DNA of 64,000 bases, taken from an uncultured Pseudomonadota bacterium (GTDB lineage Bacteria; UBA10199; JADFYH01). The notes beneath the pieces are model-generated. The model was not told the origin of the DNA and did no database searches. It worked only from the letters and a program-made list of their open reading frames with translations. Location of the stretch: the NCBI GenBank assembly GCA_964384365.1, contig CAYLKF010000001.1, forward strand, positions 212,079-276,078, given 5' to 3'. The position numbers were made by a program, and so were the translations under genes. This document shows positions 3,735-61,468 of this stretch, one piece after another. Within the stretch, counting starts at the first letter, position 1. The number at the start of each line of letters is the position of its first letter.

Positions 3735-3823
3735 TACCTCCTCATATCAGGCCCCACCGTTACAAATTCGCCCAAGCTTTCTAAACCTTCTCGAAGATGC
3801 GCGTTTCGCACATGCTCGAAGGT
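3735..3823. repeat. Left direct repeat: orphan copy of the last ~29 codons plus stop of the ABM-family gene at 11537..11818
   Basis: Base-by-base alignment of 3735..3823 with 11538..11626 gives 86/89 identical (mismatches at 3740, 3770, 3796). The minus-strand reading encodes ...FEHVRNAHLREGLESLGEFVTVGPDMRR-stop, but stops lie immediately upstream, so it is a gene fragment. Confidence 0.85.
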
Positions 3824-12471: not shown

Positions 12472-12543
<72 letters not shown>

Positions 12544-12555
12544 ACAAACCGCCTT

Positions 12556-12662
12556 CCATAAAAATGCATCTGCGGTGTTGCCACTCCTCAACACTCCTCA
12601 CATACCATTAGAGATATGCTCCGGTTGTTTCCTCGTGGCTGCCTAGCATCTGCAATTTTTCT
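12556..12662 (+). repeat. Intergenic block-conserved element, copy 1 of the GTTGCC / CCTCAC / GCTCCGGTTG / GCCTAGCATCTG family
   Basis: Shares four blocks at near-identical spacing with 29261..29336; an internal hairpin co-varies between copies (CATA..TATG here, CGTAC..GTACG there). Confidence 0.5.
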
Positions 12663-12687
12663 GTAAGGCTATTACCAAACTAATATG

Positions 12688-12824
12688 AACAATTCGGCAG
12701 TGTTTCTGAAAGAAGGCAAAGTGCTGAATTCTTTAGGACTCACTAATACAGATCTGCACGTAACAAATTAGTTTCCTTACAGCGCGTTTTACCTGCACTG
12801 AAGAAATACTGCCGAATTGTTTCA
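12688..12824 (+). repeat. Intergenic element with imperfect terminal inverted repeats; shares blocks with 36265..36370
   Basis: Arms CAATTCGGCAGT (12689..12700) and ACTGCCGAATTG (12810..12821). Blocks AAAGTGCTGAATT and CAGCGCGTTTT recur 45-46 nt apart in both copies. Confidence 0.5.
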
Positions 12825-17845: not shown

Positions 17846-19885
17846 TTATTCCATTTTGAAAACCGGCGTGCGAATCGGCGCAATCGTAAATCCAAAAGTG
17901 AAACTTTGACCCGGTGCCAGATTTTTCTGCCAACTGGGCAACTGCATCGTGGTTTGGTTTGCCGTTTTCGAAATCAAATCGACACTCCACGGCGAAAAAC
18001 CATTTCCTACATTCGCTGAAAATCGCAATCCGCTGAAGGTTGTAGATTTTGTCGTATTCTTGAGCACTGCCTTCATGTTGGCGCCACTCCAAGCTTCTCC
18101 CCTGCCCCACTCAGAATCGATTGAGAGCGTCAAGGTTAAGCCCGACGCAAGATTCTGCACCATTGATCCTTCTGTAGGATTCTGAGGGGGAGAAGGATCC
18201 GGTGCGGGGCTCGGAGCAGGGCTAGGTGGAGCAAGCTCTGTGGCGTTTTGCAAACTGAACGACGGCGTACTCAAAGGAGTCACTGTAAAACCAAAGGTAT
18301 AAGTTTCTCCAGGATCTAACGTGTTGTTGTAAGAGGGTAAACCTACCACGGTTTCAGAAGCGGTTTTCTGAACAGGATCCATACTCCAAATATTAATTCC
18401 ATTTCCTTGATTCGCTTTAATTTGAATTTGATTAAAAGTTTTGGAACTACTCATATTTTTAAGGGTGGCTTTATAAGTCGCTCCACTCCAGGGCTCCCCT
18501 TGGCCCCAAGAATTATCGACAACAAGTTGTAATTGAAAATCGGGCGAGATTGTTTGTGTTAAAGATCCGGGTGTTGGTGCAGGAGCAGGAGCTGGGCTGG
18601 GTGTTGGTGTTGGAGTTGGTGTTGGAGTCGGCGTTGGTGTAGGAGCGGGAGTAGGTGTTGGCGTAGGGCTTGGTGTGGGTGTAGGAGTGGGTGTAGGAGC
18701 AGGTGGAGGATTCCCATACAAAGTTTGAGAAACCAAAGAAGTTAAAGCATATTGATCATCGAGATCAATCGCCCAAATCATGGCTCCGCCCAGTTGTTTA
18801 TTCGTTAAATAATTCAATTTGCGGGTAATCGATTCCGAATCGTCGTAACTAATCCAATTTCCCCTTCCATCGTAGGCATAAGGCGTATCGGTATTTGAGT
18901 CCCACATACGCTGATATTGGCCACTATTCACGAGCTGCTCAATTTCATAATAAGCCATGAAACCGGCTTCTTGAGTGCAAGTGCCTCGCGGCGGATTCGG
19001 ACTCCACGGATTGGTGATCGTACTATTAGGCAGATTGGCCGAAGCGCTGCCAAAGCTTCTTCCATAAAACGGAATTCCTAAAATCAATTTCGACGAAGGC
19101 ACTCCCGCGTTGAGATAAAGATTCACAGTATAATCGATGTAAAAATGCCCATTGGGCACGGAGTCGTGCATCAAGGGCGAGTTGACTCCCGTTTTTGAAT
19201 CCCAACTTCCATGAAAATCGTAAGTCATGAGATTGATAAAATCGAGATAAGGATGAATCAAAGAAAGCTCGTAATTGGCAATGTGCGCTTCGCCCGCAGG
19301 AGCTGCGATTGTAAGCAAAAGCTTTTCTTTTCCGGCAGGAACCCGCTCGGCATCAATGGCTTGCCGAAATTCTTTGAGCAAGGCCGTAAAATTTTTCTTA
19401 TCTTGAGAAGTTCCAGAATGCTCTGCGAATCCGGGGTATTCCCAATCGAGATCAATTCCATCAAATCCGTAAGTTCGGGCATAAGTCATGGCTGAATTAA
19501 TAAAAGTTGCCCGCCGAGCAGAGCTTGAAGCCATCGCAGGAAAGGCATCACTTAAAGTCCAGCCCCCAATTGAAATCAAAGTTTTTAAATGGGGATACTG
19601 TTGTTTGAGGCTATTCAACTGCTCATACAAACCCGGAGAACCGCTGCTGATGTCATTCCACTCAACGGGTTGCACTTGATCACCCGCTCCAATTTTTGCA
19701 AAGGCATAATTGATATGCGTAAAATATTCGGGCCGGACATTGGCAGGAGTGAACTTGCATTGACCCGGCCGGTATTGAGCCCAATTGGTGAAATAGCCAA
19801 CAACTCGTGGAGTGGTATCGGCTCGCACTTCCAGAGAGAAGGCTAAAAGGAGAAATCCCAAAATCAACCGACTCAAGGCTTTCAT
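17846..19885 (-). CDS. Secreted GH18 chitinase with Pro/Thr linkers and two C-terminal CBM2-like modules
   Basis: Signal peptide, catalytic motif [11 protein letters not shown], long PT-repeat linker, two about 100-aa Trp-containing modules ([11 protein letters not shown]... and [11 protein letters not shown]...). Confidence 0.88.
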
Positions 19886-26631: not shown

Positions 26632-29229
26632 ATGGATTTTATTAGCTCCAAAAATTTAAGACCTCTCTTAAAAAGCATTATCGAATCGATTGTCGAATTG
26701 CATATTGGTCATCGTTTGATCGATAGTTTTTTGGTCTTAACCCCCAATGAAACAAGTGCCGAAGATTTAAGACAACTTTTTTTACAAAATCCTCAACTTG
26801 GAGGAGTGCTCACCGGCAAAAGTATCACTTCTCTGGGCAAATGGATTGCGCAATCAAGCCAAGAAATAGATTATAAAGCAAAAAAAGCACCTTCTTATAT
26901 TCAAGAAACTTTGCTCAAAAGTATTGTTCATCCCGATTTAACTGCAAATTACTCCGAGCTTTCTTACAAAAGCATTTTACTTTTGATTCAATCGTTCCGC
27001 GAGGAGTTCTTCAATGCTGCGTCTCTCAAAAATTTTCTCGAAGGATTTGACCCTGTTTTGGCGCAATATTGCCATGCGTGGTTTAAAAACTATGAACAAG
27101 CCATCGAACAGCACGCTCATCTTAAAGATTTTACCTGGCAGGCCGAGCTCTGTTTTCGGGAAATTTCTCAAAAAAAATTAACCGCTTTAAAGCCCATTCG
27201 TCGCATTTATTACTTAGGTTTTTTAGATTTCCCTCCCCTTCTCAAGAAGCTGACTCAAAGCCTTGAAAAATATTATCCAGAAATTTCTCAGATCGTGCTT
27301 TGTCAAATTCCTGAAACCTTAGACCCTCAAGATTATCTTTCTAAAACTTGGGAAGAAAATCTAAAAAATCTAAATTATTTTGAAGATAAAAGCGAAAATA
27401 CACTTTCGCTCAATGAATACACGAGCCCCTTCGAAGAAGCTTCGGCTCTCCTCTCAGAAATAAGTGAAAAAATTCAGGCGGGTGTTGATCCGAGCAGCAT
27501 TGCGCTCACGCTTCCTGCAAACGATTTCTGGCAGCACTATTACCAAGAACAACTCGAGGCCTTGGGGCTTTTTCCTCATTTTCCTTCGAATAAAAAACTC
27601 AGCCGATGTCTTATTCTTGAAGATTTTTTTGATCTTACTGCCCCACAAGCACTCGAAAAAGTAGAAACTTTACTCACTCAAAAAAGAAAAATTTTAAATT
27701 CCCTTCGCCAAACCTTGCCTGCCGAAGAATTAAAAGCGCTCGAAGGCTTTAAAGAAACTTTAGAGGAGATCCTTTTTTATCAAGAAGAATATCCGTGGCT
27801 AAAACCCCATTTTCCTTCTCTGCGTCAAATTGCTCAGCAAATTTTTCTACCTTTAAAGAGGGTTAGCCATCGCGGCATTCAAATTCGAAGCTTAGATCAA
27901 GTGGGGTTAAAACAATTTTCTTATAATTTTATTCCTCAACTCACGGAGAGCTCTTTTCCAAAAAACCCCGAACGTTTTTTGGGGCTCGCTCTCCCCAACC
28001 ATTCAAGAGAGCTCAGCTACCAACAAGCAATCTACCAAGATCTGCTGCACTCCGCTCAAGAAGTAAAAATTACTTATTCAAAAGTGGGGGTCCAGGCCAG
28101 AGAGCAAAGTCCTTCGTCGTTCATCATCGGAAATTTTAACCCAAGCTCTTTTCCAAATCTCTTTTGGGGAGCCCCTCTCCTCCCCGCTTCTTTTTCAGAA
28201 CGATTGGCCACTGAAAGGCTTCGCCAAGAAGATCTGAATTACCAACACGCTTACGGAGGCTGGATCACCAACAAGCAAACTTTAGAAAAATTGCAAAATT
28301 GGGCGGCCCAGGCTTTTTTCTCGGCCTCGCGCCTTGAAAAATATGCAAACTGCCCTTTTAGCTTCTTTGCCAGCACACTGCTCCGACTCGAAACAGAAGA
28401 AGAAAAAAATCTAGAAGGCGATGCGCGAGAGCAAGGAAAATGGGTTCACCAGTTGCTTGAAAACTTCTTCAAACAAAATCGTGATCTGCTTAAAAATGCT
28501 GGCTTCAATCGTGAACTTCGAAAAGAAGTCGAAGAAAAAATAAAAGAAGAAATTCACCGGGCCGCAGCACTTTTTTTAAAAAACAAACCTTGGGTGCACC
28601 CCAAGCTTTTTGAAGATTTTGCAGAGCGTGCCTTAAAAACCTGCCACGACCTCTTTCAACATTTTTGGAAACAATGGGAAGAAAAACGCCCCGCTCTTTT
28701 TATTCCAGAATTTTTTGAATATTCTTTCGGAAAAAATACAGCCCTTACCCTTCAACGCCAGGGCCTGCCTCCCCTTCGTTTAAAGGGTCAGATCGATCGC
28801 ATCGATGTTAGCGAAGATCGAAAAGAATTCATCACCTGGGATTATAAAACCGGCGGAGTGGAGGGGCTTACGCGAGAGATTAAAGAATTTAAAAAACTCC
28901 AACTCCCTCTCTATCTCAGGGCGGCTCAAGAGATTGAAAGTTTACAGGCAAGCACGGGGGTGGCTTCTCTTGCGCTGGGATTAAAAGAGATGAACGATAA
29001 TCAAGGCCTTGCCCAAAAAGAGCGTGCCTCCGTTTTTGGATTCAAAGGCCGTCCCGGATGCCTGCTCCCCGAAAAGGCTTGGGAGGATTTTTGGCCGGCG
29101 TTTGAAGAGAAAATTCTAGATTATTTTGAAAAAATTTATCGCGGCGATTTTCGCACTCAACCCGAACCTTGTTCGGAATATTGCGAATACCGCACGATTT
29201 GTCGATACCATGAACGCAAAAAATCTTAG
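26632..29229 (+). CDS. AddB-like PD-(D/E)XK nuclease subunit with C-terminal Cys cluster
   Basis: C-terminal nuclease motif DRIDVSEDRKEFITWDYKTG and Cys cluster CSEYCEYRTIC; no clear helicase motifs. Confidence 0.65.
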   Translation: MDFISSKNLRPLLKSIIESIVELHIGHRLIDSFLVLTPNETSAEDLRQLFLQNPQLGGVLTGKSITSLGKWIAQSSQEIDYKAKKAPSYIQETLLKSIVHPDLTANYSELSYKSILLLIQSFREEFFNAASLKNFLEGFDPVLAQYCHAWFKNYEQAIEQHAHLKDFTWQAELCFREISQKKLTALKPIRRIYYLGFLDFPPLLKKLTQSLEKYYPEISQIVLCQIPETLDPQDYLSKTWEENLKNLNYFEDKSENTLSLNEYTSPFEEASALLSEISEKIQAGVDPSSIALTLPANDFWQHYYQEQLEALGLFPHFPSNKKLSRCLILEDFFDLTAPQALEKVETLLTQKRKILNSLRQTLPAEELKALEGFKETLEEILFYQEEYPWLKPHFPSLRQIAQQIFLPLKRVSHRGIQIRSLDQVGLKQFSYNFIPQLTESSFPKNPERFLGLALPNHSRELSYQQAIYQDLLHSAQEVKITYSKVGVQAREQSPSSFIIGNFNPSSFPNLFWGAPLLPASFSERLATERLRQEDLNYQHAYGGWITNKQTLEKLQNWAAQAFFSASRLEKYANCPFSFFASTLLRLETEEEKNLEGDAREQGKWVHQLLENFFKQNRDLLKNAGFNRELRKEVEEKIKEEIHRAAALFLKNKPWVHPKLFEDFAERALKTCHDLFQHFWKQWEEKRPALFIPEFFEYSFGKNTALTLQRQGLPPLRLKGQIDRIDVSEDRKEFITWDYKTGGVEGLTREIKEFKKLQLPLYLRAAQEIESLQASTGVASLALGLKEMNDNQGLAQKERASVFGFKGRPGCLLPEKAWEDFWPAFEEKILDYFEKIYRGDFRTQPEPCSEYCEYRTICRYHERKKS

Positions 29230-29231
29230 GT

Positions 29232-29354
29232 GGCACCTCTAAAAACCACCCATCTGCCTTGTTGCCTGTTCGCTTACAATCCTCACGTACATTTAAAGTA
29301 CGCTCCGGTTGCAAGCTCACAGACGCCTAGCATCTGGACATTTTTAGAGGTACC
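29232..29354 (+). repeat. Intergenic block-conserved element, copy 2, with terminal inverted repeats, between the AddB-like and AddA-like genes
   Basis: Arms GGCACCTCTAAAAA and TTTTTAGAGGTACC (13/14 complementary); interior blocks shared with 12576..12652. Confidence 0.55.
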
Positions 29355-29368
29355 AAAAGTAAATAAAG

Positions 29369-32300
29369 ATGAAACTGAACTTTAATCAAATTCAGGCCTC
29401 TGAAAGCATCGATCAGCATGTCTGTATCTTGGCGAGCGCAGGCTGTGGGAAAACCACGGTTTTGGTCGCGCATTATCTAGAACTTCTCCGAAAGAAAAAT
29501 TTGCGGCCCTCGCAAATTGTCGTTACCACTTTTTCTGAAAAATCGGCGGCAGATATCAAACAAAAAATCCTCCATCTCTTTCGAGAATCCGAAGATTTAG
29601 CACATTTACTTCCTGAATTTCTTCAAGCGCCCATTTCAACCCTCCATGGTTTGGCGGGCCGAATTTTAAGAGATTCTTCATTCTTGCTGGGGCTCGATCC
29701 GCATTTTCGGGTTTTAGATGAAAATCAAGCCGCAAGCCTTCAAAATGAGGCCTTAAAAGAGGTTCTTCAAGAACAACTCCATCAATCCTCCCCTTTTCTT
29801 AGCCTACTCATCCAGACTTATCCTTGGAGAGGTTTAGAAAGGGAGTTTTACGATTTGCTTCAAGCCTGGCCCGAGTGGAAGGAGCGTTTTTCTCAGGATT
29901 TTGAAAAAGGCTCCGATGAGACCGAAACAAAATTAAAAGAGGCTTTTGCCCAAGTTTTTCTTAAAATATTAGAAAAATATGAAGCGAAGAAAAAAGAAAA
30001 AGAACTGCTTGATTTTAATGATTTAGAAGAAAAAGCCATTGAACTGCTTCAAAAAAATATCTGGGTGGCCAAACACTATCAAAAACAATGGAAAGCCTAC
30101 CTGATTGATGAATTTCAAGATACGAGCCACCGCCAAGATCTTCTTCTCTCTCTTTTGCTGCCCCAAAATTCCGAAGGAAAACTCTCTCTCCAAACCCATT
30201 TGGCGATTGTGGGAGACCCCAAACAATCGATTTATGGCTTTAGGGGAGCAAAAGCCCACATTTTTGAGAAGTATCAAGCCCTCATCGAAAATTCGGGAGG
30301 CATGACTGTTGAGCTCAATGAAAACTATCGAAGCCCCAGCACTCTTCTCGATTTCATCAATGCCCTTTTTACCCCTATTTTTTCGAATTACTCTTCTTTG
30401 ATCGGCAACCGAGAATTACCCCAATCTTTAGAAATTTTAAAAAGTAATGAAATCATCGAAGAAATGAAGAGCGATGAGAGAAGAAAACAAGAAGCACAAT
30501 CTTTAAGCCTTCATCTTCAACAGATTTTAAAAGAAGGAGTAAAAAGCAAAGAGATTTTCGTTTTGGTTCGTTCTTCGAGATCAATGGCTCCCTATCTGAA
30601 AGCCTTTCGAAACGCAGGGCTCCCTGTTTTTGTGAAGTCAGGAGAAAGCTTGCTCACCCGGCAAGAAATTCAAGATTTACTTCACGCCTTAAGAGTTTTT
30701 CTCTACCCCAACCAAGCCCTTTCTTGGATCGGTCTACTCCGTTCTCCCGCCTTTCATTTAAGCGATGAACAACTACTGGAATACTCGCTCGATCATGGGC
30801 TGAAGCCCGACTGGACCCAAATTCACCCTCTTGCTCAAAAGCTCCTTCAACAAGATAAAAACCAATCACCGAGCCAATTTATCGAATGGTGGCTCAACGA
30901 AACCGCACTCATTTCATTATACAGTGCAGAGCCTTCTCTTCAGCCCCAGGCACAAAACCTGCTTCAATTTTATAATTTTTGTTTTGAATGGGAACAAACC
31001 CACCCCGCAAAACTTGAAGAGTTTTTAAAAGAAATGGAGGTCTTGATTGAAGAAAATATCCCTTTCAATAGTTTGAGCGATCAGCTGGGAGGCAATCAGG
31101 CCATTACTTTCATGACCATCCATCAATCAAAAGGCCTCGATCTCCCCGTGGTGGTTTTGCCCGATCTTAAAGTCAACTCTTCTCAAGCCGAAACCCGCTC
31201 TTTAATTTGTGCCTGGGAAAAAAAATGGGGATTAAAAGTTCCCGATTCAAAACCGGGGCTCAAAAAAAATCTGAAAAGCTCAAATGCCTTTCAAGAAAAT
31301 CTCAAAAACCTTCAAGCAGCGCAGGCCGAAGAAGAAAACAGAATTTTTTATGTTGCAACAACCCGCTCTACCCAAAAACTCATCTTAGGTTTTCTACCTT
31401 CTGAAAATCAAAAACTCGGGGGCAAGCCCCCGAGTTTGATCCTGAGCGACCCTTCGACTCGCTCCGCTCGCTCAGGGTCATCCTTCTCTATATTGTCTCG
31501 GCCCCAAGGAACCGAATTTCAGGAGTCGAAGGATGAAAAAAAAGAGAGCAAACAGGCCCGCGATTTCTTACAAACCGTCGGAAAAAACTTCTCTGCTGTT
31601 CGCTGGATCTCTCCTCTTCAAGAAATTTCAGAGCCCAACGAAAATAAAATTTTAAATAAAATACAAACGCTCTCTGCTTTTAAGCACAAACAAATTCTCC
31701 ATTTTGGAGTAAGTGCTCTAGAAACTTTTCAAAGATCCCCTCAAGAATATCGAGAGCGCTATATTGATCAAATTCCTGCGGAAAGTCTCTCAGGAGCTAA
31801 CCGTTTTCGTCCGAGCTCTTCACTCAGTGGCTTGAAAAAGGGGCAAATTCTTCACGAAGCTTTGTATCTTTATTTCAAAGAAAAAACTTCTAGCCCGGCT
31901 GAAATCTTAACCAGTTGCCTGGCCAAGCATGCAATCGATTCTCAAAACCTGCCAGAACTGCTAGAAATCTTCTCGCGCACTCTGAAGCATTCAAACTTTT
32001 CTCCGATCTTAAACGCCCAAGAAGCCTATTTTGAAATCGATTTCAGGCTCCTTTTAGATTTTTACGAGATTCAAGGGGCTATCGATTGTCTTTATTTGCA
32101 TGAAAAAACCTGGAAGGTTTTAGATTATAAAACCCATGCCTTAGAAGAAAATCGAAGCAAGAAAGAGCTGCCCGCAAAACCCTTTGAGTTTCAGCTCAAA
32201 ACCTATTGTCTTGCCGCCAGCAAAATGTTGGGTCAAACTACAGAGAGAGCTGAGGTTTATTTTATTATACCCAATAAAACTTTCTCTTTTAACTTTAAAG

Positions 32301-32380
32301 AGGAAGAGCTTAAGAAACATGAGCTTTATTTAAAAAACTTAATGAATGAAATTAATCAATTCACTCTGACTTCCTCATGA
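29369..32380 (+). CDS. AddA/RecB-like UvrD-family helicase with C-terminal nuclease domain
   Basis: Walker A SAGCGKTTV, motif II IDEFQDTS, FYVATTRS, C-terminal IDCLYLHEKTWKVLDYKTH. Confidence 0.8.
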   Translation: MKLNFNQIQASESIDQHVCILASAGCGKTTVLVAHYLELLRKKNLRPSQIVVTTFSEKSAADIKQKILHLFRESEDLAHLLPEFLQAPISTLHGLAGRILRDSSFLLGLDPHFRVLDENQAASLQNEALKEVLQEQLHQSSPFLSLLIQTYPWRGLEREFYDLLQAWPEWKERFSQDFEKGSDETETKLKEAFAQVFLKILEKYEAKKKEKELLDFNDLEEKAIELLQKNIWVAKHYQKQWKAYLIDEFQDTSHRQDLLLSLLLPQNSEGKLSLQTHLAIVGDPKQSIYGFRGAKAHIFEKYQALIENSGGMTVELNENYRSPSTLLDFINALFTPIFSNYSSLIGNRELPQSLEILKSNEIIEEMKSDERRKQEAQSLSLHLQQILKEGVKSKEIFVLVRSSRSMAPYLKAFRNAGLPVFVKSGESLLTRQEIQDLLHALRVFLYPNQALSWIGLLRSPAFHLSDEQLLEYSLDHGLKPDWTQIHPLAQKLLQQDKNQSPSQFIEWWLNETALISLYSAEPSLQPQAQNLLQFYNFCFEWEQTHPAKLEEFLKEMEVLIEENIPFNSLSDQLGGNQAITFMTIHQSKGLDLPVVVLPDLKVNSSQAETRSLICAWEKKWGLKVPDSKPGLKKNLKSSNAFQENLKNLQAAQAEEENRIFYVATTRSTQKLILGFLPSENQKLGGKPPSLILSDPSTRSARSGSSFSILSRPQGTEFQESKDEKKESKQARDFLQTVGKNFSAVRWISPLQEISEPNENKILNKIQTLSAFKHKQILHFGVSALETFQRSPQEYRERYIDQIPAESLSGANRFRPSSSLSGLKKGQILHEALYLYFKEKTSSPAEILTSCLAKHAIDSQNLPELLEIFSRTLKHSNFSPILNAQEAYFEIDFRLLLDFYEIQGAIDCLYLHEKTWKVLDYKTHALEENRSKKELPAKPFEFQLKTYCLAASKMLGQTTERAEVYFIIPNKTFSFNFKEEELKKHELYLKNLMNEINQFTLTSS

Positions 32381-38586: not shown

Positions 38587-39858
38587 TTAATTATGATAAA
38601 GGCTTTTCGAGGCAATATCGCGCCTGAATTGCATTCCTCGCCAATAAATCTTGGAGACGGCTTCATAGGCACGATTCACGGCCTCTTGAAGAGTATCGCC
38701 CAAGGCACTAACCAGCAAAACTCGGCCCCCATTAGTAAACCATTTGCCTTCCTTTTTAATTGTGCCCGCATGAAAAACTTTCACCTGCTCCATTTTTTCG
38801 GCGTCTTCGATTCCTTTAATTTCATCACCTTTACTTGGAGTTCCTGGATACCCTTCGGCTGCCAAAACCACACCCACACAAGATTTTTCATGCCAGGCGA
38901 TTTTATATTTCGATAAACGATTTTCAATCGTGGCAATCATCAATTCCACTAAATCGGATTTCATACGCGGCAAGATCACTTCACATTCCGGATCTCCAAA
39001 ACGCACGTTGTATTCTAAGAGTGAAGGCCGATCGTGATGAATCATCAAACCGGCATATAAAACACCGTGATAAGAGATATTCTCTTGAGCAAAACCTTCT
39101 AAGGTGGGTTCAATAATCTTCTTCATCGTTTGCTCAAAAACATCGGGGCTCACAATCGGAGCAGGAGAATAAGCACCCATTCCACCCGTATTCGGCCCCT
39201 GATCGCCTTCGAAAATTCTCTTATGATCTTGGCTGGTGGCTAAAGGAAGCGCGGTTTTTCCATCGGTAATCACCATAAACGAAGCTTCTTCGCCCTGTAA
39301 AAAACTCTCGATCACCACTTTATTTTGATCACCCACACTTTTCTTCACCAAAATCTCATCAATCGCTTCTAAGGCTTGGGCAAGATTTTCAGCAATGATC
39401 ACTCCTTTTCCAGCGGCTAATCCATCGGCTTTAATCACAATCGGAAACTCTTGGTTTTCTAAATAAGATTTTGCAGCCTGAGCCTCTTCAAACACTTCAT
39501 AAGAAGCGGTGGGAATATTATTTTTTTTGCAAAGTATTTTAGTGAATGCCTTCGAAGCTTCGAGTTGAGCCCCCTGCAAAGAAGGCCCAAAAATGGGCAC
39601 ACCCACCTTGCCACAGGCATCCACCACACCATTCACCAACGGGGCTTCAGGCCCCACCACCACCAAATCAATGCGTTGACGAAGGGCGAAATCGGCTACT
39701 TTTTCAGGAGAAAGAATATCTAAGGCAACACATTCTCCAAGCGCCGCCATTGCATCACTACCTGGGGCGATAAAAAGTTTCTTTAAACGCAGACTCTGCG
39801 TAATTTTCCAGGCCAAGGCATGTTCTCGGCCACCCGAGCCTAAAAGGAGAATGTTCAT
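38587..39858 (-). CDS. purD: Phosphoribosylamine-glycine ligase
   Basis: MNILLLGSGGREHALAWKI N-terminus; ATP-grasp core. Confidence 0.92.
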   Translation of the reverse strand: MNILLLGSGGREHALAWKITQSLRLKKLFIAPGSDAMAALGECVALDILSPEKVADFALRQRIDLVVVGPEAPLVNGVVDACGKVGVPIFGPSLQGAQLEASKAFTKILCKKNNIPTASYEVFEEAQAAKSYLENQEFPIVIKADGLAAGKGVIIAENLAQALEAIDEILVKKSVGDQNKVVIESFLQGEEASFMVITDGKTALPLATSQDHKRIFEGDQGPNTGGMGAYSPAPIVSPDVFEQTMKKIIEPTLEGFAQENISYHGVLYAGLMIHHDRPSLLEYNVRFGDPECEVILPRMKSDLVELMIATIENRLSKYKIAWHEKSCVGVVLAAEGYPGTPSKGDEIKGIEDAEKMEQVKVFHAGTIKKEGKWFTNGGRVLLVSALGDTLQEAVNRAYEAVSKIYWRGMQFRRDIASKSLYHN

Positions 39859-39880
39859 CTTTTATAACTCCAATTTTCAA

Positions 39881-40026
39881 TAGACTTCTTTCGTAACCGT
39901 CACGAGCAATTGACCTGCAAGGCGCGGTGGGACCCGTTTTCCGTAGCGTACAGTGACGTACGTGAGGAAAATGGGGGAACCGCAACGCAGCAGGGCATTT
40001 GCGCAGTAGGTTACGAAAGAAGTCTA
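39881..40026 (-). repeat. Long inverted-repeat element filling the purH-purD intergenic region (18-bp perfect arms, 110-nt interior)
   Basis: TAGACTTCTTTCGTAACC (39881..39898) and GGTTACGAAAGAAGTCTA (40009..40026). The right arm contains the purH stop codon. The interior, read on the minus strand, contains CCTCACGTAC..GTACGCT.CGG related to the 12556 and 29232 elements. Confidence 0.6.
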
Positions 40027-41604
40027 ATGCCTAAAATGCCGCATTCCGGTGAATACCATCGCCAAATTATGCTCATTCGCGGCCTGAATCACTTCTTCAT
40101 CGCGCACCGAACCACCCGGTTGAATTACGGCCGTAATTCCATATTGAGCGGCAGCATCGATTCCATCGCGAAAAGGAAAAAAGGCGTCGGACGCTAAAAC
40201 CGAGCCTTGCAAGGTTTCCTGGGCTTTTAAGCCACCCAACTTCACCGAATCAATTCGGCTCATCTGCCCTGCTCCAATTCCTACGGTATAACCCGGCTTC
40301 GCAAAAATGATGGCATTCGACTTCACATGTTTCGCCACTTTCCAGGCAAAGTTTAAGGCTTTCAGCTCACTGGCTGTAGGTTGGCGCTTACTCACAATCT
40401 TGCATTGGCTCACATCAATCTTGCCCAAATCACGGTTTTGGAGCAAAAGGCCACCCACGATTTTTCGGAGTTCTAGCCCTTCAGGCTTCCATTGCTTCGA
40501 AGAAGGCGTTTTCAAAATACGGAGATTCTTTTTTGTTTTCAGCAAATCGAGCGCTTGCGGCTCGTAATCGGGCGCTACAATCGCCTCAAAAAAAGTCTGA
40601 TTAAATTCTTGGGCAAAATCTAAATCGACTCGGGCATTCACGGCAACAATTCCACCAAACGCCGAAGTCGGATCACAAGCCTTCGCGCGATCGAAGGCCT
40701 CTTTGAGCGAATCACCCAAAGCCACTCCACAAGGATTATTGTGTTTGATGATTACACAGGCGATTTCTTCAAATTCTTTTACCGTATCTAAAGCCGAATC
40801 GAGATCTAAAATATTATTATAAGAAAGCTCTTTGCCATGCAAAACACTCGCGTTGGCGATAGAGGGTTCGTGAATGCCTTCAAAACGGTAAAAGGCCGCT
40901 TTTTGGTGAGGATTTTCTCCGTAGCGCAATAGAGAAATACCTTGAGCCTGCAAATTCAACACTTGAGGAAAGGCTTGCGCCTGAGGCACTTCTTCTGCCG
41001 CACACTCGGCAATACTGGTGAGATAATTACTAATCGCTCCATCGTAGGCAGCCGTATGCGAAAAAGCCTTTTGAGCAAAATAAAACCGCGTGGAACGATC
41101 GATCTTTCCCTCGTTCTTTTTCAAAATCTCAATCACCCTTGAGTAATCTTGAGGATCCACTACTACGGTGACCGATTCGAAGTTTTTCGCCGCCGAACGA
41201 ATCATCGAAGGCCCACCAATATCGATATTCTCAATGGCGGTTCCTAAATGAGTGCCGGACTTTGCAACCGTTTCTTCAAAGGGATAAAGATTCACCACCA
41301 CCAAATCAATGGGGCGAATTTGTTGGGCTTCCATTTCTTTGAGGTGTTTTGGATCATCGCGTTTTCCGAGCAAGCCCCCATGAATCTTTGGATGCAGCGT
41401 TTTAACCCTCCCATCTAAAATTTCGGGAGAACCCGTAAAATCAGAGACTTTAATAACCGGAATATTTTCTTTTTTCAAAATCTCGGCCGTATTTCCGGTA
41501 GAAAGAATTTCAACGTTGAGCGAGTGAAGAGTCTTGGCCAATTCTACCAAGCCTTCTTTTTTTGAAACACTCACCAAAGCACGACGAATCAAAACTTCTT
41601 GCAT
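40024..41604 (-). CDS. purH: Bifunctional AICAR transformylase / IMP cyclohydrolase
   Basis: MGS-like N-terminal domain (ALVSVSKKEGL) and AICARFT domain. Confidence 0.92.
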   Translation of the reverse strand: MQEVLIRRALVSVSKKEGLVELAKTLHSLNVEILSTGNTAEILKKENIPVIKVSDFTGSPEILDGRVKTLHPKIHGGLLGKRDDPKHLKEMEAQQIRPIDLVVVNLYPFEETVAKSGTHLGTAIENIDIGGPSMIRSAAKNFESVTVVVDPQDYSRVIEILKKNEGKIDRSTRFYFAQKAFSHTAAYDGAISNYLTSIAECAAEEVPQAQAFPQVLNLQAQGISLLRYGENPHQKAAFYRFEGIHEPSIANASVLHGKELSYNNILDLDSALDTVKEFEEIACVIIKHNNPCGVALGDSLKEAFDRAKACDPTSAFGGIVAVNARVDLDFAQEFNQTFFEAIVAPDYEPQALDLLKTKKNLRILKTPSSKQWKPEGLELRKIVGGLLLQNRDLGKIDVSQCKIVSKRQPTASELKALNFAWKVAKHVKSNAIIFAKPGYTVGIGAGQMSRIDSVKLGGLKAQETLQGSVLASDAFFPFRDGIDAAAQYGITAVIQPGGSVRDEEVIQAANEHNLAMVFTGMRHFRH

Positions 41605-41618
41605 AAAAATTTCCTTTT

Positions 41619-42749
41619 CTAATTCGATGTCGACTGAGCTCGCACTGCTAAACGAGGAACCCGACTAGAAATCCCACAAAAAATTTCGTAAGAAATTGTT
41701 TTAATTTTACTGGCCAACTCTTCGGCAAACAAAACTTCTTCGCCTTGTTTACCAATCACCACCACTTCATCTCCTAAAGCCACTTCGGGGATATCGGTTA
41801 CATCAATCAAAGTTAAATCCATGCAAACTCGCCCCACCACCGGAACCCGCCGCCCTCGCACTAAAACTTCGCCACAATTTGAAAACGAACGCGAATAACC
41901 ATCGGCATAACCTAAAGCCATAATGGCAATCTTACTCGGACGAGACGTGTAATAGCTTGCCCCATAAGATAAAGCCGCCCCTGAAGGAAATTCTTTTAAA
42001 GAAACGATCTCCGTTTTCCAACTCAAGACTGGTTCTAATCGAATTTGAGACTCAAAACGTGGATTCGGATAAGCCCCGTACAACGCGATACCCGGCCGCA
42101 CCAGGCTTGTTTGATCGACCCGTTTTTCAATTAAGGCCGCACTGTTTGCAATATGAAAAAAAGGGATCTGCATTTCGCTTAATTTTTCGCGCACCTCTTC
42201 AAATCGAGAGTACTGCTCTTCGGTGGGGTGCGGGTTTTCTTCATCCGCACAGGCGAGATGGGTCATTACTCCTTCTAATTTCAAGGCGGGAGAATCTTGA
42301 ATCAATTTCAAATAACGCGAAAGCTCTTTTGGAAAAATTCCCAAGCGCCCCATGCCGGTATCGATTTTGAGATGAAAAGGTAAAATCGAGGGCGAACCCG
42401 AAAGTTCTTGGGCCAAGCGGCGCAGAGTTTCTTCTTCAAATAGAACGGGGGTAATTTGATATTCGAGTAAATCTTTGGCACTGGCTTTAAAGGCTCCGCC
42501 AAAACACAAGATCGAACGCGAAATACCTGCTTTTCGAAGCTCCAACCCTTCTTCAATCGTCGCCACCCCAAAAGTAGTTGCGCCCTCAGCCTCTAAAACA
42601 CGCGCCACAGTAACTGCACCATGCCCGTAAGCATTGGCCTTCACCACGGCCAAAATGCCTTGATCCCCTGCACAGGCTTTTAAGGCTTGATAATTATGGC
42701 GAAGAGCGGCCAAATCGATTTCACAAAAACTAGGGCGGAAAAAGGGCAC
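41619..42749 (-). CDS. alr: Alanine racemase
   Basis: PLP-binding motif AVVKANAYGHG. Start codon is GTG. Confidence 0.9.
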   Translation of the reverse strand: MPFFRPSFCEIDLAALRHNYQALKACAGDQGILAVVKANAYGHGAVTVARVLEAEGATTFGVATIEEGLELRKAGISRSILCFGGAFKASAKDLLEYQITPVLFEEETLRRLAQELSGSPSILPFHLKIDTGMGRLGIFPKELSRYLKLIQDSPALKLEGVMTHLACADEENPHPTEEQYSRFEEVREKLSEMQIPFFHIANSAALIEKRVDQTSLVRPGIALYGAYPNPRFESQIRLEPVLSWKTEIVSLKEFPSGAALSYGASYYTSRPSKIAIMALGYADGYSRSFSNCGEVLVRGRRVPVVGRVCMDLTLIDVTDIPEVALGDEVVVIGKQGEEVLFAEELASKIKTISYEIFCGISSRVPRLAVRAQSTSN

Positions 42750-42764: not shown

Positions 42765-42925
42765 ATTCCAGAATGTTTTCTTTAATTTTTTTGGATGTCT
42801 GAGCGTCCAAAAACAATCGCTCTTGAACTTTCACTCGCGGTTACTCAAAAACACGAAAAACGCACCGTGAAAGAGCGATTCAAAATCGCGAGTTTCCAAA
42901 AAAATTAAAGAAAACATTCTGGAAT
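42765..42925. repeat. 161-bp palindromic element with 30-bp perfect inverted-repeat arms in the divergent alr / MBL-gene promoter region
   Basis: ATTCCAGAATGTTTTCTTTAATTTTTTTGG (42765..42794) is the exact reverse complement of 42896..42925. The 101-bp interior has nested inverted repeats. Confidence 0.8.
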
Positions 42926-42993: not shown

Positions 42994-43752
42994 ATGTCAA
43001 AACTTAAAATAACATCGATTGGGCACGCGAGCCATCTCATCGAGATGGACGGCGAATTTCTGATTACTGATCCAAATTTCTCGCGAAAAATGTGGATTGC
43101 GAAACGTGAAAAAGAGCCCGGAATTGCCCCCGAAGATTTACCCCAGCTCGCCGCGATTGTTGTTACTCATGCACACTACGATCACCTCGATCTTTTTAGT
43201 TATAAATACTTCTCCATTCATATTCCAATCGTAGTGCCCGAAGGCTTGGGGAGTTTTATAAAAAAGCATCTACGAAACCCCGTAATTGAAATTCCAAAAG
43301 AAGGTTCTGTGTTGGTGGGAGGAATCAAAATCCATCGCGTGCCCGTAAAACATTTTGGTTTTCGCCTTTTCGGGCTCACCTGGCGTGAAACCACAGGTTA
43401 TCTTTTTGAAAAAAACGGCAAAAAAGTTTATTTTCCGGGCGATACCGCTTACGGCGATGGTGAGCATTTTCGAAAAGCGGCTGCAAAACACGCGATTGAT
43501 GCCGCCCTACTCCCAATTGGTGCTTATGCCCCGCGCTGGTTTATGAAAAGTCGGCATATGAATCCACCCGATGCCCTTCAAGCGTTTAGCGATTTAAAAG
43601 CAAAAGTGATGATTCCTTATCACTGGGGAGTATTTCAAATTTCTGCCGAACCTGTCGAGGCCCCGCGGGAATGGCTCGAGCAAATTCTCAAAGAAAAACC
43701 GGATTCTCGCGTAAAAATCTTGCGCCCCGGAGAACATTGGAGCTCCGAATGA
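42994..43752 (+). CDS. MBL-fold metallo-hydrolase
   Basis: Metal-binding motif VTHAHYDHLD. Confidence 0.8.
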   Translation: MSKLKITSIGHASHLIEMDGEFLITDPNFSRKMWIAKREKEPGIAPEDLPQLAAIVVTHAHYDHLDLFSYKYFSIHIPIVVPEGLGSFIKKHLRNPVIEIPKEGSVLVGGIKIHRVPVKHFGFRLFGLTWRETTGYLFEKNGKKVYFPGDTAYGDGEHFRKAAAKHAIDAALLPIGAYAPRWFMKSRHMNPPDALQAFSDLKAKVMIPYHWGVFQISAEPVEAPREWLEQILKEKPDSRVKILRPGEHWSSE

Positions 43753-56928: not shown

Positions 56929-57021
56929 TCTTAAAATTCTCCTAGAAACCTCTGAAAACTAGCCAGACGTCAGGCATCTGCAAACGAGCAACAATGCAGA
57001 TGGGTAATTTTAGAGATTCCC

Positions 57022-57675
57022 TCACTTCTTTTCGTCTTCAGGTTTATACTCGAAATATTCGCTGCGAATCTTGCTTCGGCCCGTTGCAGGAAAAACTTCA
57101 ATCGAATAAAAGCTCTCTTCTTTTTCATCGGTCAAATTGATCACGGCTTTTTCAACCCAACCATTCGGAAAAAAATAAATCGCCACCTTTCCCGATTCCA
57201 CTTTTTTTCCATAATGTTCCACATACACATCTTTAATTCGAACCCCACTCGGAATCTCGATAGGTTTTAATAAAAAATTCGTCTCTTGATTAAAACTTAC
57301 TTGGGCGGCCCCTTCGGGCTCGGGCTCTGGAGCATTTGCGTCTGTATTGGGAGCTGTGCTTGCCTTCGGTTCAGAACCCACCGAAGGATCATCGGGAGTT
57401 CCATCTGGCGTTGCAACAATTTTAAAAGGATCTTCCGCAGATTCTACAGAAAAAGTACGAGCACCAAAATCAATTAAGAGGCGATAGTATTGATTCTTCA
57501 CCGCCGCTTCATTGTAGACATATTTGATTGTACCGGAGAGTTGATCGGCCGTGGTTGAAATCTTTTCCCCAAACAAGTCCTGCAGAGTAAAGGCAGTAAG
57601 CCCCATAATGAGGGCAATCACCGCCACCGTGACCATGATTTCAATTAAAGTGAAGCCACGTCGGCTCTTAAACAT
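57022..57675 (-). CDS. gspH: Type II secretion system minor pseudopilin H
   Basis: Prepilin motif GFTLIEIMVTVAVI. Confidence 0.75.
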   Translation of the reverse strand: MFKSRRGFTLIEIMVTVAVIALIMGLTAFTLQDLFGEKISTTADQLSGTIKYVYNEAAVKNQYYRLLIDFGARTFSVESAEDPFKIVATPDGTPDDPSVGSEPKASTAPNTDANAPEPEPEGAAQVSFNQETNFLLKPIEIPSGVRIKDVYVEHYGKKVESGKVAIYFFPNGWVEKAVINLTDEKEESFYSIEVFPATGRSKIRSEYFEYKPEDEKK

Positions 57676-58300: not shown

Positions 58301-59530
58301 TTACCCTCTCGCAATTTGATTGAGCTTGAGGATTGGAAATAAAATCGAAAGAACAATAAAACTAACCACCGCCCCCATCACCACAATCATGATCGGTTCT
58401 AAGAGCGTTGTCAAAGTAGAAACTTTGGTATCGACTTGCTGATCGTAAGCATCGGCCACTCGCTCCAACATGGTTTCGAGCTCGCCCGTTTTTTCTCCAA
58501 TCGCAATCATCTGAGTAACAATGGGAGGAAATTGCCCGCTCCGTTTTAAGGGCTCTGCGAGCGATTCTCCCTCTTTCACGCTATCTTTAGTTTCTTCAAT
58601 CACTTTTGTTAAAACCGAATTTTGAACAATATTTTTCACAATGTCCATCGAAGTTAAGAGCTGCACGCCAGAAGACATCATGGTGGATAAGGTTCTGCAA
58701 AATCGAGAAATTGCAATCATCCGAAACATTTCGCCAAAAATAGGCATTTTTAACATGTTTCGATCAATAAACTCTCTTCCTTTAGGAGATTTCTGAAATC
58801 GCATGAACAAATAAGCACCCAAAGGAATCAACAGAATCACAATATACCAATACCCTGCCAAAAAATCACTCACGCCCACCAAAATTTTAGTTGGGAGAGG
58901 AAGGGTGGCCTTGGTATCGTCAAAAATTTTAGTAATTTTGGGCACCACACTAACCAAAAGAAAGCCCATCAAGAGCACACCAACCGTCATCATAATAATA
59001 GGATAAGTCAGCGCCCCTACCACTTTACTTCTCAGCTTTGCCTGACCTTCTGTAAATTCGGCCAAGCGTTTGAGAACAATTTCAAGCGCACCGGAGGCTT
59101 CACCTGCAGCAATCATGTTTACAAAAAGTTCGCTAAAAATTTGAGGGTAATGGCGCATCGCATCGGCTAAACGAGAACCTTCGGTAACCCGATCGCGAAT
59201 CTGAGAAAGCGTTTCACGCAATTTTGGATTTTCAACCTGTTCCACCAAAGCCGACAACGAATCTACCAAAGGAATATTAGCTCCAACGAGGGTGGCCAAT
59301 TGGCGAGTCATGTTGGCCAAATCTTGAACGCCCACCCGCTGAAATAAAGAAGAGAACGGATTCGCTTTCCCAAGAGTATTCGAAGAGGCTTGCCCCCCCT
59401 CAATCACTTCTGTCGGGAAAATATTCATGCGACGGAGCTTCGCCCGAGCCGCTTTAATATTTTCTGCATCCACCCGACCGGAGGATTTTTTTCCGTTTGA
59501 ATCAATCCCTTTATAAGAAAATATTGGCAT
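58301..59530 (-). CDS. gspF: Type II secretion system inner-membrane platform protein F
   Basis: GspF-like N-terminus MPIFSYKGIDSNGK and two repeated T2SSF domains. Confidence 0.85.
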   Translation of the reverse strand: MPIFSYKGIDSNGKKSSGRVDAENIKAARAKLRRMNIFPTEVIEGGQASSNTLGKANPFSSLFQRVGVQDLANMTRQLATLVGANIPLVDSLSALVEQVENPKLRETLSQIRDRVTEGSRLADAMRHYPQIFSELFVNMIAAGEASGALEIVLKRLAEFTEGQAKLRSKVVGALTYPIIMMTVGVLLMGFLLVSVVPKITKIFDDTKATLPLPTKILVGVSDFLAGYWYIVILLIPLGAYLFMRFQKSPKGREFIDRNMLKMPIFGEMFRMIAISRFCRTLSTMMSSGVQLLTSMDIVKNIVQNSVLTKVIEETKDSVKEGESLAEPLKRSGQFPPIVTQMIAIGEKTGELETMLERVADAYDQQVDTKVSTLTTLLEPIMIVVMGAVVSFIVLSILFPILKLNQIARG

Positions 59531-59701
59531 TCGAAATAATTGTCCTTAAATTTTCATTATTATAATTTCTTTTAGAACCGTTATGAGCGGGCTCAAGACA
59601 AGGCGGGCGAGGAGAAAAGCCGCAGCGTATATGAATATACGTGAGGATTTTTCGACGAACCCAACGCAGTCATTAGTCCGCGTAATAGGTTATAAAAGAA
59701 A

Positions 59702-61411
59702 TTATTCTCTCATCTGATCTTCTTGTGTAACTCGGAGCAACTCTTCAATGGTTGTTTCTCCCGCCAAAACTTTTCGCGCTCCATCTTCACGCAGAGTAAG
59801 CATTCCTTTTTCCATCGCACGTCGCTTAATCCGGCCGGCCTCGACCCCTTTCATAATCATGGAACGAAGTTCATCATCCATCACCAAAATTTCATGAATA
59901 CCGGTTCTACCGGCATAGCCCGTATCTAAGCAGGCAGGGCAACCTTTGGCCTTGAAAACAAATTTATCGACAACCTTCGCGGGATCTAAGCCTATCTGCG
60001 CCAGCTCCTCGGCACTAGGTTTATAACGAGCGCCACATTCTTTACAGACTGTTCGCAAAAGACGTTGCGCCATAATGGCGATCACCGATGAGGAAACCAA
60101 AAAAGGCTCCACACCCATATCGATCAAACGCGCAATCGAAGAGGCCGAGTCGTTGGTATGTAAGGTTGAAATAACCAAGTGTCCGGTGAGTGATGCCTGA
60201 ATTGCAATTTCGGCGGTTTCACGATCTCGAATTTCTCCGATCATCACTACGTCTGGATCTTGACGCAAAATCGATCGCAAACCGGTTGCAAAAGTAAGAT
60301 CGATCTTCGGGTTCACTTGAATCTGGTTAATACCCGGAATTTGATATTCAACAGGATCTTCAACCGTGATGATTTTCAAATCGGTGGAGTTAATCTGAGA
60401 AAGCATGGCATATAGAGTTGTCGTTTTACCAGATCCGGTAGGCCCTGTGACCAAGATAATTCCGTGACTTTTATGGATTAAACTTTCGACGGTCTTTAAA
60501 TTCTGCCCTTCAATTCCAATAACTCCCAGAGAAAGAACAACTTTACTCTTATCGAGGAGACGCATCACAACCGATTCTCCAAAACTCGTAGGCAAAGTCG
60601 AAACACGAATATCGATATCTTTTCCTGCAATTTTAATACGAATACGCCCGTCTTGAGGGAGTCGCTTCTCCGCAATATTGAGATTAGCCATAATTTTAAT
60701 ACGACTAATCACCGAATTTTGAACTTTTTTAGGCGGATGCATAATATCGTAGAGCACCCCATCGATTCGAAAACGCACGACCAAATCTCGCTCAAAGGGC
60801 TCAACGTGAATATCGGAGGCTTTCGACTTTACAGCGCGAGAGAGCAAACTATTTACAAGTTTAATGATAGGCGCTTCATCAGAAACATCTAACAAATCTT
60901 GCGGTTCTTGAAGTTCTTGAGCCAGGGTATCTAGATTTTCTTCCGAAAGATCTTCCATCACGGCCTGATCGGTTTCGGTGTTTCGATTATAAACTTCGTT
61001 AATGGTTTCTAAGATTTGAGAGGAGCTCGCAATAACGGGCTTGATCGAAAGATTGAGCAAAACATGTAAATCGTCTAGGGCATGAATATTAATCGGATCA
61101 GAGATGGCCACTTCGAGATCGTCCCCAACTTTGCGCAAAGGAAGAAGTTCATTTTTCTTCGCATAGTTAATGGGAATTTTCTTGATATAGTCGTAGGGGA
61201 TCTCATCTGTTTTCAGGCGACTTGAATAAGGAATACCCACCTGAATACTAATCGCCTTCAAAATATCTTCGGATTTTAAATAACGAAGCTGAACGAGAGC
61301 TTCTCCTAACTTTATATTCTTTTCCCGCTGAACCAGTAAGCCCTCTTCAAGCTGGGCTTCGGTGAGAGAAGTATTTTCGAGTAAAATATTTCCAAGGCTT
61401 CGATCATCCAT
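59702..61411 (-). CDS. gspE: Type II secretion system ATPase E
   Basis: Walker A GPTGSGKTTT and C-terminal Cys motif. Track start 61468 is a TTG; first ATG at 61411 has GAGGA about 10 nt upstream. Confidence 0.9.
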   Translation of the reverse strand: MDDRSLGNILLENTSLTEAQLEEGLLVQREKNIKLGEALVQLRYLKSEDILKAISIQVGIPYSSRLKTDEIPYDYIKKIPINYAKKNELLPLRKVGDDLEVAISDPINIHALDDLHVLLNLSIKPVIASSSQILETINEVYNRNTETDQAVMEDLSEENLDTLAQELQEPQDLLDVSDEAPIIKLVNSLLSRAVKSKASDIHVEPFERDLVVRFRIDGVLYDIMHPPKKVQNSVISRIKIMANLNIAEKRLPQDGRIRIKIAGKDIDIRVSTLPTSFGESVVMRLLDKSKVVLSLGVIGIEGQNLKTVESLIHKSHGIILVTGPTGSGKTTTLYAMLSQINSTDLKIITVEDPVEYQIPGINQIQVNPKIDLTFATGLRSILRQDPDVVMIGEIRDRETAEIAIQASLTGHLVISTLHTNDSASSIARLIDMGVEPFLVSSSVIAIMAQRLLRTVCKECGARYKPSAEELAQIGLDPAKVVDKFVFKAKGCPACLDTGYAGRTGIHEILVMDDELRSMIMKGVEAGRIKRRAMEKGMLTLREDGARKVLAGETTIEELLRVTQEDQMRE

Positions 61412-61468
61412 AGCTTCAATTTCCTCTTTTGAGAATGATAATATAATCTTCTTCGTCAAAGAGAACAA

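Follow-up and report, generated by a model that had tools for sequence, protein, structure and literature searches.

A palindromic repeat over the purH stop codon of an uncultured bacterium, read as a probable miniature element mobilised by an IS5-family transposase

The purH-purD junction and the element within it

The DNA analysed here is a 64-kb stretch of contig CAYLKF010000001.1 from an uncultured Pseudomonadota bacterium (hereafter the window, meaning the whole 64,000 nucleotides), and the subject is a 144-bp palindromic element lying in it between two minus-strand genes, purH (40024-41604, with the AICARFT/IMPCHase and MGS domains by Pfam) and purD (38587-39858, with the GARS N, A and C domains by Pfam). 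The spacer between the two genes spans 165 nt (39859-40023). The plus strand of 39882-40025 is called the forward strand of the repeat family throughout and is antisense to purH and purD. The parts of the element and the signals of its neighbours are as follows.

39882-40025, plus strand: the element proper, a 144-bp non-coding palindromic MITE (miniature inverted-repeat transposable element), with bounds set by the terminal repeats and the 3-bp flanking duplication
39882-39898, plus strand: left terminal inverted repeat, AGACTTCTTTCGTAACC, 17 bp
40009-40025, plus strand: right terminal inverted repeat, GGTTACGAAAGAAGTCT, 17 bp, the perfect complement of the left repeat
39879-39881, no strand: left target-site duplication, AAT (flanks identical, AAT/AAT)
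40026-40028, no strand: right target-site duplication, AAT, in which base 40026, read on the minus strand, doubles as base 1 of the purH stop codon
40024-40026, minus strand: purH stop codon TAG, composed of the final T of the duplicated target and AG, the first two bases of the element
39868-39871, minus strand: purD Shine-Dalgarno sequence GGAG, beyond the hairpin and separated by 9 nt from the ATG at 39856-39858 downstream of it
39941-39968, plus strand: apical core, CCG-T-AGCGTAC / loop AGTGAC / GTACGTGAGGA, with columns invariant in the 46-copy alignment A2
39917-39924, plus strand: conserved block GCAAGGCG on the 5' side of the rod, a block that ERIC has too
39982-39991, plus strand: conserved block GCAACGCAGC on the 3' side of the rod

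A first-pass annotation of this DNA had described an 18-bp perfect inverted repeat in the spacer, with the purH stop codon inside the right arm and the left arm ending about 10 nt before the purD ribosome-binding site. All of these observations hold: the repeat at 39881-39898 and 40009-40026 is perfect at 18 of 18 positions (95% over 21 nt when extended), the TAG at 40024-40026 lies in the right arm, and 9 nt separate the end of the left arm from the GGAG. The 18-mer arm has no other site in the 64-kb window, where 0.03 chance matches are expected. The repeat appears to be 18-21 nt long because a 17-bp terminal repeat is joined to a nearly palindromic target duplication; the 18-bp arm is therefore the 17-bp terminal repeat plus one base of duplicated target.

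The coding capacity of the element is limited to short overlapping open reading frames (ORFs) that are unsupported. Rfam covariance models applied to the whole window at gathering score recovered two tRNAs and nothing else, and on the element region at E<=10 the top match was noise (a miRNA model at 19 bits against a gathering score of 142). The only other contig carrying an identical PurD breaks off within the element.

Predicted folding far exceeds that of shuffled sequence on either strand, with -71.6 kcal/mol (z -6.75) for the mRNA-sense strand and -82.8 kcal/mol (z = -9.8) for the plus strand, and the element as a whole is an imperfect palindrome with 71% self-complementarity. The RNA structure prediction that the first-pass annotation had proposed thus bears out a stable long stem, the predicted mRNA-sense hairpin starting from its base with an unbroken run of about 20 base pairs. 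The stem had also been described as enclosing 110 nt, and this part did not stand, as the 110 nt between the arms are predicted to pair with themselves into an almost continuous imperfect rod with no enclosed loop. The Shine-Dalgarno sequence and AUG of purD are unpaired in the mRNA fold as predicted, and lie outside the stem, so that a direct occlusion of purD translation is not indicated.

Because the purH stop codon is followed at once by a strong hairpin, an intrinsic terminator or attenuator between the two genes could also be supposed. This reading is extremely unlikely: the stem is followed not by a U-tract but by the tail UAUUGAAAAUUGGAG, it is far longer than the stems of typical terminators, and a scan of the element found neither a terminator-like nor a promoter-like site.

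Empty sites, dispersed copies and a transposase-bearing element with the same ends

The nearest named PurD belongs to a Deltaproteobacteria metagenome-assembled genome (MAG; 65% identity), and other relatives reach 72-76%. In the two closest relatives with purH and purD still adjacent, the element is absent: L124 (75% PurD identity) reads ...GGCAC TGA AAGAATCTT ATG, with a 9-nt purH-purD spacer, and L126 (74% PurD identity) reads ...GACAT TAG GATCGCT ATG, with a 7-nt spacer. The PurH of relatives ends in RHFRH followed by TGA, TAG or TAA without the element, and the family covariance model detected no copies in about 110 kb of the relatives' loci. When the element and one AAT are removed from the window sequence, the mRNA strand reads ...CGG CAT TGA AAATTGGAGTTATAAAAG ATG, a reconstructed pre-insertion locus in which PurH ends in RHFRH-stop and an 18-nt spacer includes the purD GGAG.

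In two further lineages (L127:6483-10000, L128, L129:9118-10000 and L130), other genes are inserted at the purH-purD junction. The insert is in one case a single ORF and in the other a group of five, a HepT-like/nucleotidyltransferase pair among them, and insertion seems to recur at this junction.

Within the window, family copies were found by blast and nhmmer and then with covariance model R1, which assigns 84.4 bits to 39894-40023 of the purH-purD element. The other copies are listed here.

59575-59702, plus strand: copy B, 89.5 bits, between the minus-strand genes 58301-59530 and 59702-61468, with decayed ends
29224-29354, minus strand: copy C, 86 bits, between the plus-strand genes 26632-29229 and 29369-32380, with ends of a different type
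12540-12670, minus strand: copy D, 71.7 bits, adjoining the tRNA gene 12472-12543
56946-57029, plus strand: an incomplete copy of the C/D type, 15.7 bits (E 0.065), which keeps the outer stem and the CAGATG/CAACAA blocks and has lost the apical core

In total, four full copies and one truncated copy occur in 64 kb, all in the spacers of unrelated genes. The window copies diverge by about 35-40% in sequence and the hairpin is kept in each. The three further full copies and the truncated one confirm the earlier remark that the interior of the purH-purD element is related to a block-conserved family.

The exact end TAGACTTCTTTCGTAAC was found at 92 loci in a scan of metagenomes, and the flanks of these were then inspected. 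Many elements of 122-144 bp carry the exact 17-mer at both sides of a diverged version of the family interior, derivatives of 44-68 bp retain the 17-mer ends alone (internal deletion), and some elements have 17-mer ends around unrelated interiors. The small metagenomic elements bounded by these ends number about 25. At L182:2242-2350, the 17-bp ends surround a different interior, a GC-rich hairpin (GTAGGGGCGAGG...CCTCGCCCCTAC) resembling a GTAG-tagged REP, which suggests that the ends can carry different cargo.

On at least eight metagenome contigs, the 17-mer lies at the termini of an insertion sequence (IS). Its left end is 57 nt before an ORF beginning MRSHYDKIKGLNEGSFRRLTGVKPKTF... (HTH_Tnp_4, 7.6e-14), and its right end follows directly after ...RFRIVSDRYRNRRKRFALRFNLISGICNYELQN and the stop (DDE_Tnp_4, 3.1e-12). 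A frameshift divides the HTH_Tnp_4 part of the ORF from the DDE_Tnp_4 part, and both parts match the NCBIfam model NF033581, IS5 family transposase, the former at 2.8e-23 over positions 3-136 of 285 and the latter at 4e-29 over positions 160-285 of 285. The family covariance model gave no match on the IS contigs, and the interior of the window element is not a remnant of this IS left by internal deletion.

With the element proper taken as AGAC...GTCT, the T before AGAC being preset by the search pattern and the right flank being free, identical 3-nt flanks were present in 22 of 29 elements with 17-mer ends, and 21 of these 22 had the form ANT. Duplications of the form ANT are listed by ISfinder for the ISL2 group of the IS5 family. 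The flanks had first been considered as the TA duplication known from ERIC, a reading rejected in favour of the 3-bp ANT after those of the 29 elements had been compared. The 3-bp duplication also fits Harbinger-type elements (PMC12730594).

The purH-purD element thus combines the features of a MITE: it is non-coding and below about 300 bp, has terminal repeats and a target duplication, occurs in dispersed copies, has ends in common with a transposase-encoding IS (on metagenome contigs), and occupies a filled site that is empty at orthologous positions (in distant relatives). We assign a probability of roughly 0.8 to the reading that it is a MITE mobilised by an IS5-family transposase and carried as a tolerated intercistronic hairpin, rather than a purpose-built purine regulator.

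In the mechanism proposed here, an IS5-family (PIF/Harbinger-like) DDE transposase would act in trans, recognising the 17-bp ends AGACTTCTTTCGTAACC and duplicating 3 bp of target (ANT). Insertion would have taken place in C-ATT-GA at the end of purH, where ATT straddles the TGA stop and the His codon before it. The present junction is CAT TAG, with the stop codon rebuilt and PurH therefore left unchanged, and the locus provides an example of a mobile element landing on a stop codon and rebuilding it. The purD gene retains, and would depend on, its own ribosome-binding site, the GGAG located 9 nt downstream of the hairpin. We infer that the element is co-transcribed with purH and purD and carried passively in their transcript as a long hairpin, the mRNA holding the weaker-folding strand. 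A structured spacer of 165 nt would then stand in place of a short one (7-9 nt in relatives; 18 nt in the reconstruction), and the tight purH-purD coupling of the relatives would likely be lost. Any effect on expression is presumptive; a plausible one, by analogy with ERIC and Correia elements, would be on mRNA processing or the stability of the transcript halves, possibly through cleavage by a double-strand-specific RNase.

The first-pass annotation had instead proposed a candidate control element within the pur operon and had named, as refuting it, absence of the region from close relatives with unchanged pur expression; the two empty junctions described above, with spacers of 9 and 7 nt, show the absence so named. 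A dedicated cis-regulatory RNA, translational or riboswitch-like, would place a very stable structure immediately upstream of the purD ribosome-binding site, as is seen, and is nevertheless very unlikely. The window has copies of the element between other, unrelated genes, and many phyla have them in unrelated contexts that number in the hundreds. The element also has no Rfam match, does not sequester the Shine-Dalgarno sequence and AUG in the predicted fold, and bears a target-site duplication and IS5-family ends. Because it is absent from the pur operons of relatives and present elsewhere, a dedicated regulator is already largely refuted. The earlier regulatory interpretation is therefore partly supported overall, in its description of the structure, and the striking stem beside purD is explained as a transposon footprint that should not be reported as a purine regulator.

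Distribution and strand asymmetry of the family

A scan of genomes with the apical-core pattern TCCTCACRTAY-N5-10-RTAYGCTNCGG returned at least 120 loci; the core positions are themselves the search pattern, and the invariance of the core is hence partly a matter of ascertainment. Among the matches listed, nearly all are full-length family members scoring 40-100 bits with the covariance model, and their hosts include Rickettsia, Tisiphia, Holosporales, Legionellales, Halomonas, Billgrantia, Enterobacterales and Burkholderiaceae; Nitrospirota, Desulfobacterota, Myxococcota, Prosthecochloris, Alistipes, Bacteroidales and Balneolales; and Bacillus, Metabacillus, clostridia, spirochaetes and a Peribacteria MAG of the candidate phyla radiation (CPR). 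A MAFFT alignment of 46 sequences yields a consensus rod of 21 pairs, 15 of them with compensatory changes, and compares with its controls as follows.

Cells paired: 92% observed, 72% in shuffled controls, 20-46% in slid controls
Covariation score: 0.51 observed, 0.15 in shuffled controls, 0.05-0.16 in slid controls

The comparison shows that the hairpin is maintained in the family; covariation in palindromic DNA does not distinguish RNA from DNA as the relevant molecule. The family interior occurs with several end types, and derivatives without the core persist.

At L132:4861-4987 and in 17 syntenic viral contigs, P2-like prophages have a family copy in sense orientation, placed between the genes for the small terminase and for head completion. 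Such prophages could be a vehicle by which the repeat spreads horizontally, and some of the variation in its copy number in E. coli may be due to them. An all-against-all comparison of ORFs from 152 loci, made for a recurrent neighbour gene that could serve as the autonomous partner of the core, returned only generic ABC ATPases and the synteny of one P2-like prophage family. A literature search on the core sequence returned primer coincidences and one paper on the ricin/sarcin loop, and nothing else. The core halves GUACGUGAGGA and ACCGGAG do resemble, in permuted order, the universal 23S rRNA sarcin-ricin loop sequence AGUACGAGAGGACCGGAG; the likeness is probably a coincidence and is given no weight here.

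The two strands of the family are not equivalent. The apical core folds as a 6-bp stem with a closing G-U pair, a GNA/GA internal loop beneath it and then CC/GG, and the forward strand is more stable than its complement in 96 of 109 family copies, with a mean difference of 7.4 kcal/mol, and likewise in each of the four full window copies. The forward strand is the more stable because of its G-U pairs (35 G-U against 17 A-C cells) and its conserved purine-purine internal loops, which become pyrimidine-pyrimidine on the complement. Among copies located between co-directional genes, the forward strand is antisense in 25 and sense in 8, a count that rests on a crude ORF caller and includes orthologous, non-independent copies (two-sided binomial p ~0.005, uncorrected for the orthologous copies). 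Additionally, 18 copies lie between convergent genes and 8 between divergent genes. On the simplest reading, the more stable forward hairpin is selected against within mRNAs. Replication direction was considered as the cause of orientation and rejected: the GC skew has a single sign across the window and the copies nonetheless lie both ways (n=3), so that a replication-strand effect is unlikely in the window, where orientation tracks the local genes and not the skew.

These asymmetries bear on whether the hairpin has been put to use at purH-purD. A domesticated MITE, in which the insertion is now retained because the hairpin sets the purH:purD expression ratio, either as a cleavage site of RNase III or RNase E or as a shield of the purH segment against 3' exonucleases, is compatible with the transposon origin and, as a proposal for this locus, unlikely. 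It would draw on the roughly 20 contiguous base pairs at the hairpin base in the mRNA sense, on arms that are both still perfect where the ends of copy B have decayed, on the 25 antisense to 8 sense orientation of the family, and on the precedents of ERIC and Correia (PMC10969869, PMC2229807). A recent insertion, however, explains perfect arms equally well, a spacer of 7-9 nt suffices in the relatives, and the orientation statistics carry the limits given with them above.

The functional unit might instead be the plus strand, as a structured antisense RNA or as single-stranded DNA whose apical motif is bound by a widespread host factor. This we consider improbable, and equally improbable is its corollary that the purH-purD copy is one instance of a family with a cellular role such as the handling of antisense transcripts or DNA structure. 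The better folding of the forward strand throughout the family and the window, the invariant G-U pair and purine-purine internal loops found on that strand only, and a core conserved from E. coli to Firmicutes, Bacteroidota, Nitrospirota, Chlorobi and a CPR genome are in its favour; it is weakened by the absence of a promoter-like site in the element, by the ascertained part of the core's invariance, by the persistence of core-less derivatives, and by the lack of a known factor.

Several observations weigh against the reading of the element as an IS5-mobilised, tolerated MITE. No IS5-type transposase was found by tblastn within the 64-kb window, and the IS contigs did not come from the metagenome samples that gave the MITE contigs. 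Empty sites are known from distant relatives only (72-76% PurD identity). The 25:8 orientation bias hints at selection at the RNA level. Finally, a DDE transposase should need only the ends, and the family interior is more conserved than the ends and contains strand-asymmetric, conserved non-Watson-Crick motifs; for this reason a model of a purely selfish DNA transposon is insufficient.

A tentative extension, which we hold as possible though doubtful, is that the interior is an unrecognised pan-bacterial structured module, comprising ERIC, the E. coli repeats of about 150 bp and the Rickettsia palindromic elements (RPE), which travels with several kinds of transposon ends and has a function of its own. 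Such a module would also take in thousands of copies from Nitrospirota, Desulfobacterota, Chlorobi, Bacteroidota, Firmicutes, Spirochaetes and, beyond these, a CPR genome. Since the apical hairpin (CCG-N-AGCGUAC...GUACGUGAGGA) and the strand-specific purine-purine loops show stronger conservation than the ends required by a transposase, one single strand, RNA or DNA, would in that case be recognised by a ubiquitous cellular factor. Its function may be, for example, that of a processing or stability signal or of a recruitment site, which would explain the tolerance of the repeat inside operons and genes.

Other repeats in the window lie outside the family. Inverted repeats at 42765-42925, 12688-12821 and 27209-27378 were considered as members and rejected on their unrelated interiors. 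The first, a 31-bp perfect inverted repeat around 99 nt between alr (41619-42749, minus strand) and the gene 42994-43752 (plus strand), folds at -66 to -70 kcal/mol on either strand and is probably another MITE family. The second, a 20-bp inverted repeat (95%) around 94 nt, is an unrelated hairpin element beside copy D and the tRNA gene, the second such element in that spacer. An 89-nt direct repeat, 97% identical (3735-3823 and 11538-11626, 7.8 kb apart), brackets a block of minus-strand genes, and degenerate repeats with a period of 12-30 nt at 18568-18703 form a low-complexity coding repeat within the 679-aa ORF 17846-19885 (minus strand).

Comparison with known repeats

The purH-purD element was compared with described families of dispersed bacterial repeats. 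REP and REPIN sequences, mobilised by RAYT, are characterised in PMC3733652 as short GC-rich hairpins tagged GTAG or CGTC. An identity with them was rejected: inspection found no GTAG or CGTC tag at the element ends, and the ends match those of an IS with a DDE transposase. That IS (NF033581, HTH_Tnp_4 plus DDE_Tnp_4, of the IS5 family related to eukaryotic PIF/Harbinger) has 17-bp ends identical to those of the window element; the latter differs in lacking a transposase and in its unrelated interior. The repeat can thereby be given a target duplication, ANT, of 3 bp and a candidate enzyme for its mobilisation, the transposase of an IS5-family element whose ends are identical.

Correia elements (CREE/NEMIS) are likewise MITEs co-transcribed with their neighbours, as is predicted for the window copy, and their paired terminal repeats are cut by RNase III (PMC10969869). 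As to mechanism, they are the best available parallel for what a perfect stem of 20 bp may do within the mRNA of an operon, and they differ in having no sequence relationship to the window element, a TA duplication, an IHF site in the long form and a restriction to Neisseria.

RPE resemble the window element as palindromic repeats of 105-146 bp with terminal inverted repeats (PMC2229807). Family copies from Rickettsia and Tisiphia share its AGAC...GTCT ends, ANT-type flanks and entire interior (65-87 bits), and lie in frame and in forward orientation within glyS, sua5/tsaC, uppS, truB, an LD-carboxypeptidase gene and others. In-frame insertion in genes is the defining behaviour of RPE (PMC2229807, PMC10969869, PMC1166351), for which the target duplication is entered as unknown (PMC2229807 Table 1). 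The window element is clearly homologous to these Rickettsia/Tisiphia repeats, to which the RPE label is applied here provisionally, by their in-frame location in genes. Unlike RPE, the window copy is intergenic and overlaps just a stop codon, and whereas RPE are defined as Rickettsia-specific, its host is non-rickettsial, with PurD neighbours that are uncultured and Deltaproteobacteria-like.

A dispersed E. coli repeat of about 150 bp has the same core and blocks as the window family (52-64 bits) and was present in 5426 of 5426 complete genomes, at a median of 5 places per genome. The MG1655 copy at L123:4508-4671 (NC_000913.3 2689507-2689670) fills the glrK-qseG spacer, carries no RefSeq annotation, and is antisense within its operon, as at purH-purD. 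The repeat differs from the window element in its ends (AGCCTATCC...GGATAGGCT) and in having no clear duplication. We take it to be probably the repeat called RSA; YPAL/RU-2 was considered as its identity and rejected, as the published RU-2 sequence differs.

ERIC elements are, like the window element, imperfect palindromes of similar size that form RNA hairpins in transcribed spacers, often at or over stop codons (PMC2229807, PMC10969869), and ERIC has been linked to co-transcription and RNase E (PMC2229807 Table 1). The window element has such a location, overlapping the purH stop codon within a same-strand gene pair whose transcription is predicted. The E. coli ERIC between ybhJ and ybhI (L131:1459-1596) is matched collinearly by the family model (19.7 bits, E 3e-4 in a 3-kb search), the blocks common to ERIC and the family being GCAAGGCG, CC.GGAGC.TAC-loop-GTA.GTGA.GG and CAACGCAGC, and this copy is antisense to its flanking genes, as the window element is. 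The ERIC ends (ATATACTC...) differ, however, as does the TA duplication of ERIC (PMC2229807 Table 1) from ANT; ERIC has been reported from Enterobacteriaceae and Vibrionaceae only, and nhmmer and blast found no ERIC-level identity to the consensus core GTGAATCCCCAGGAGCTTACAT/AAGTAAGTGACTGGGGTGAGCG in the window element. ERIC is therefore a likely distant relative, judged by sequence, with different ends and a TA duplication, and if this likeness holds, ERIC, the E. coli repeat of about 150 bp and the Rickettsia repeats would form one superfamily.

Combined, these comparisons make the purH-purD element a probable MITE related to the Rickettsia palindromic repeats and, likely at a greater distance, to ERIC, with an interior module that appears to connect the ERIC, E. 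coli and Rickettsia repeats with copies in many phyla. If that link and the strand-specific conservation are true, the nature and persistence of intergenic palindromes, a long-standing question, would become testable.

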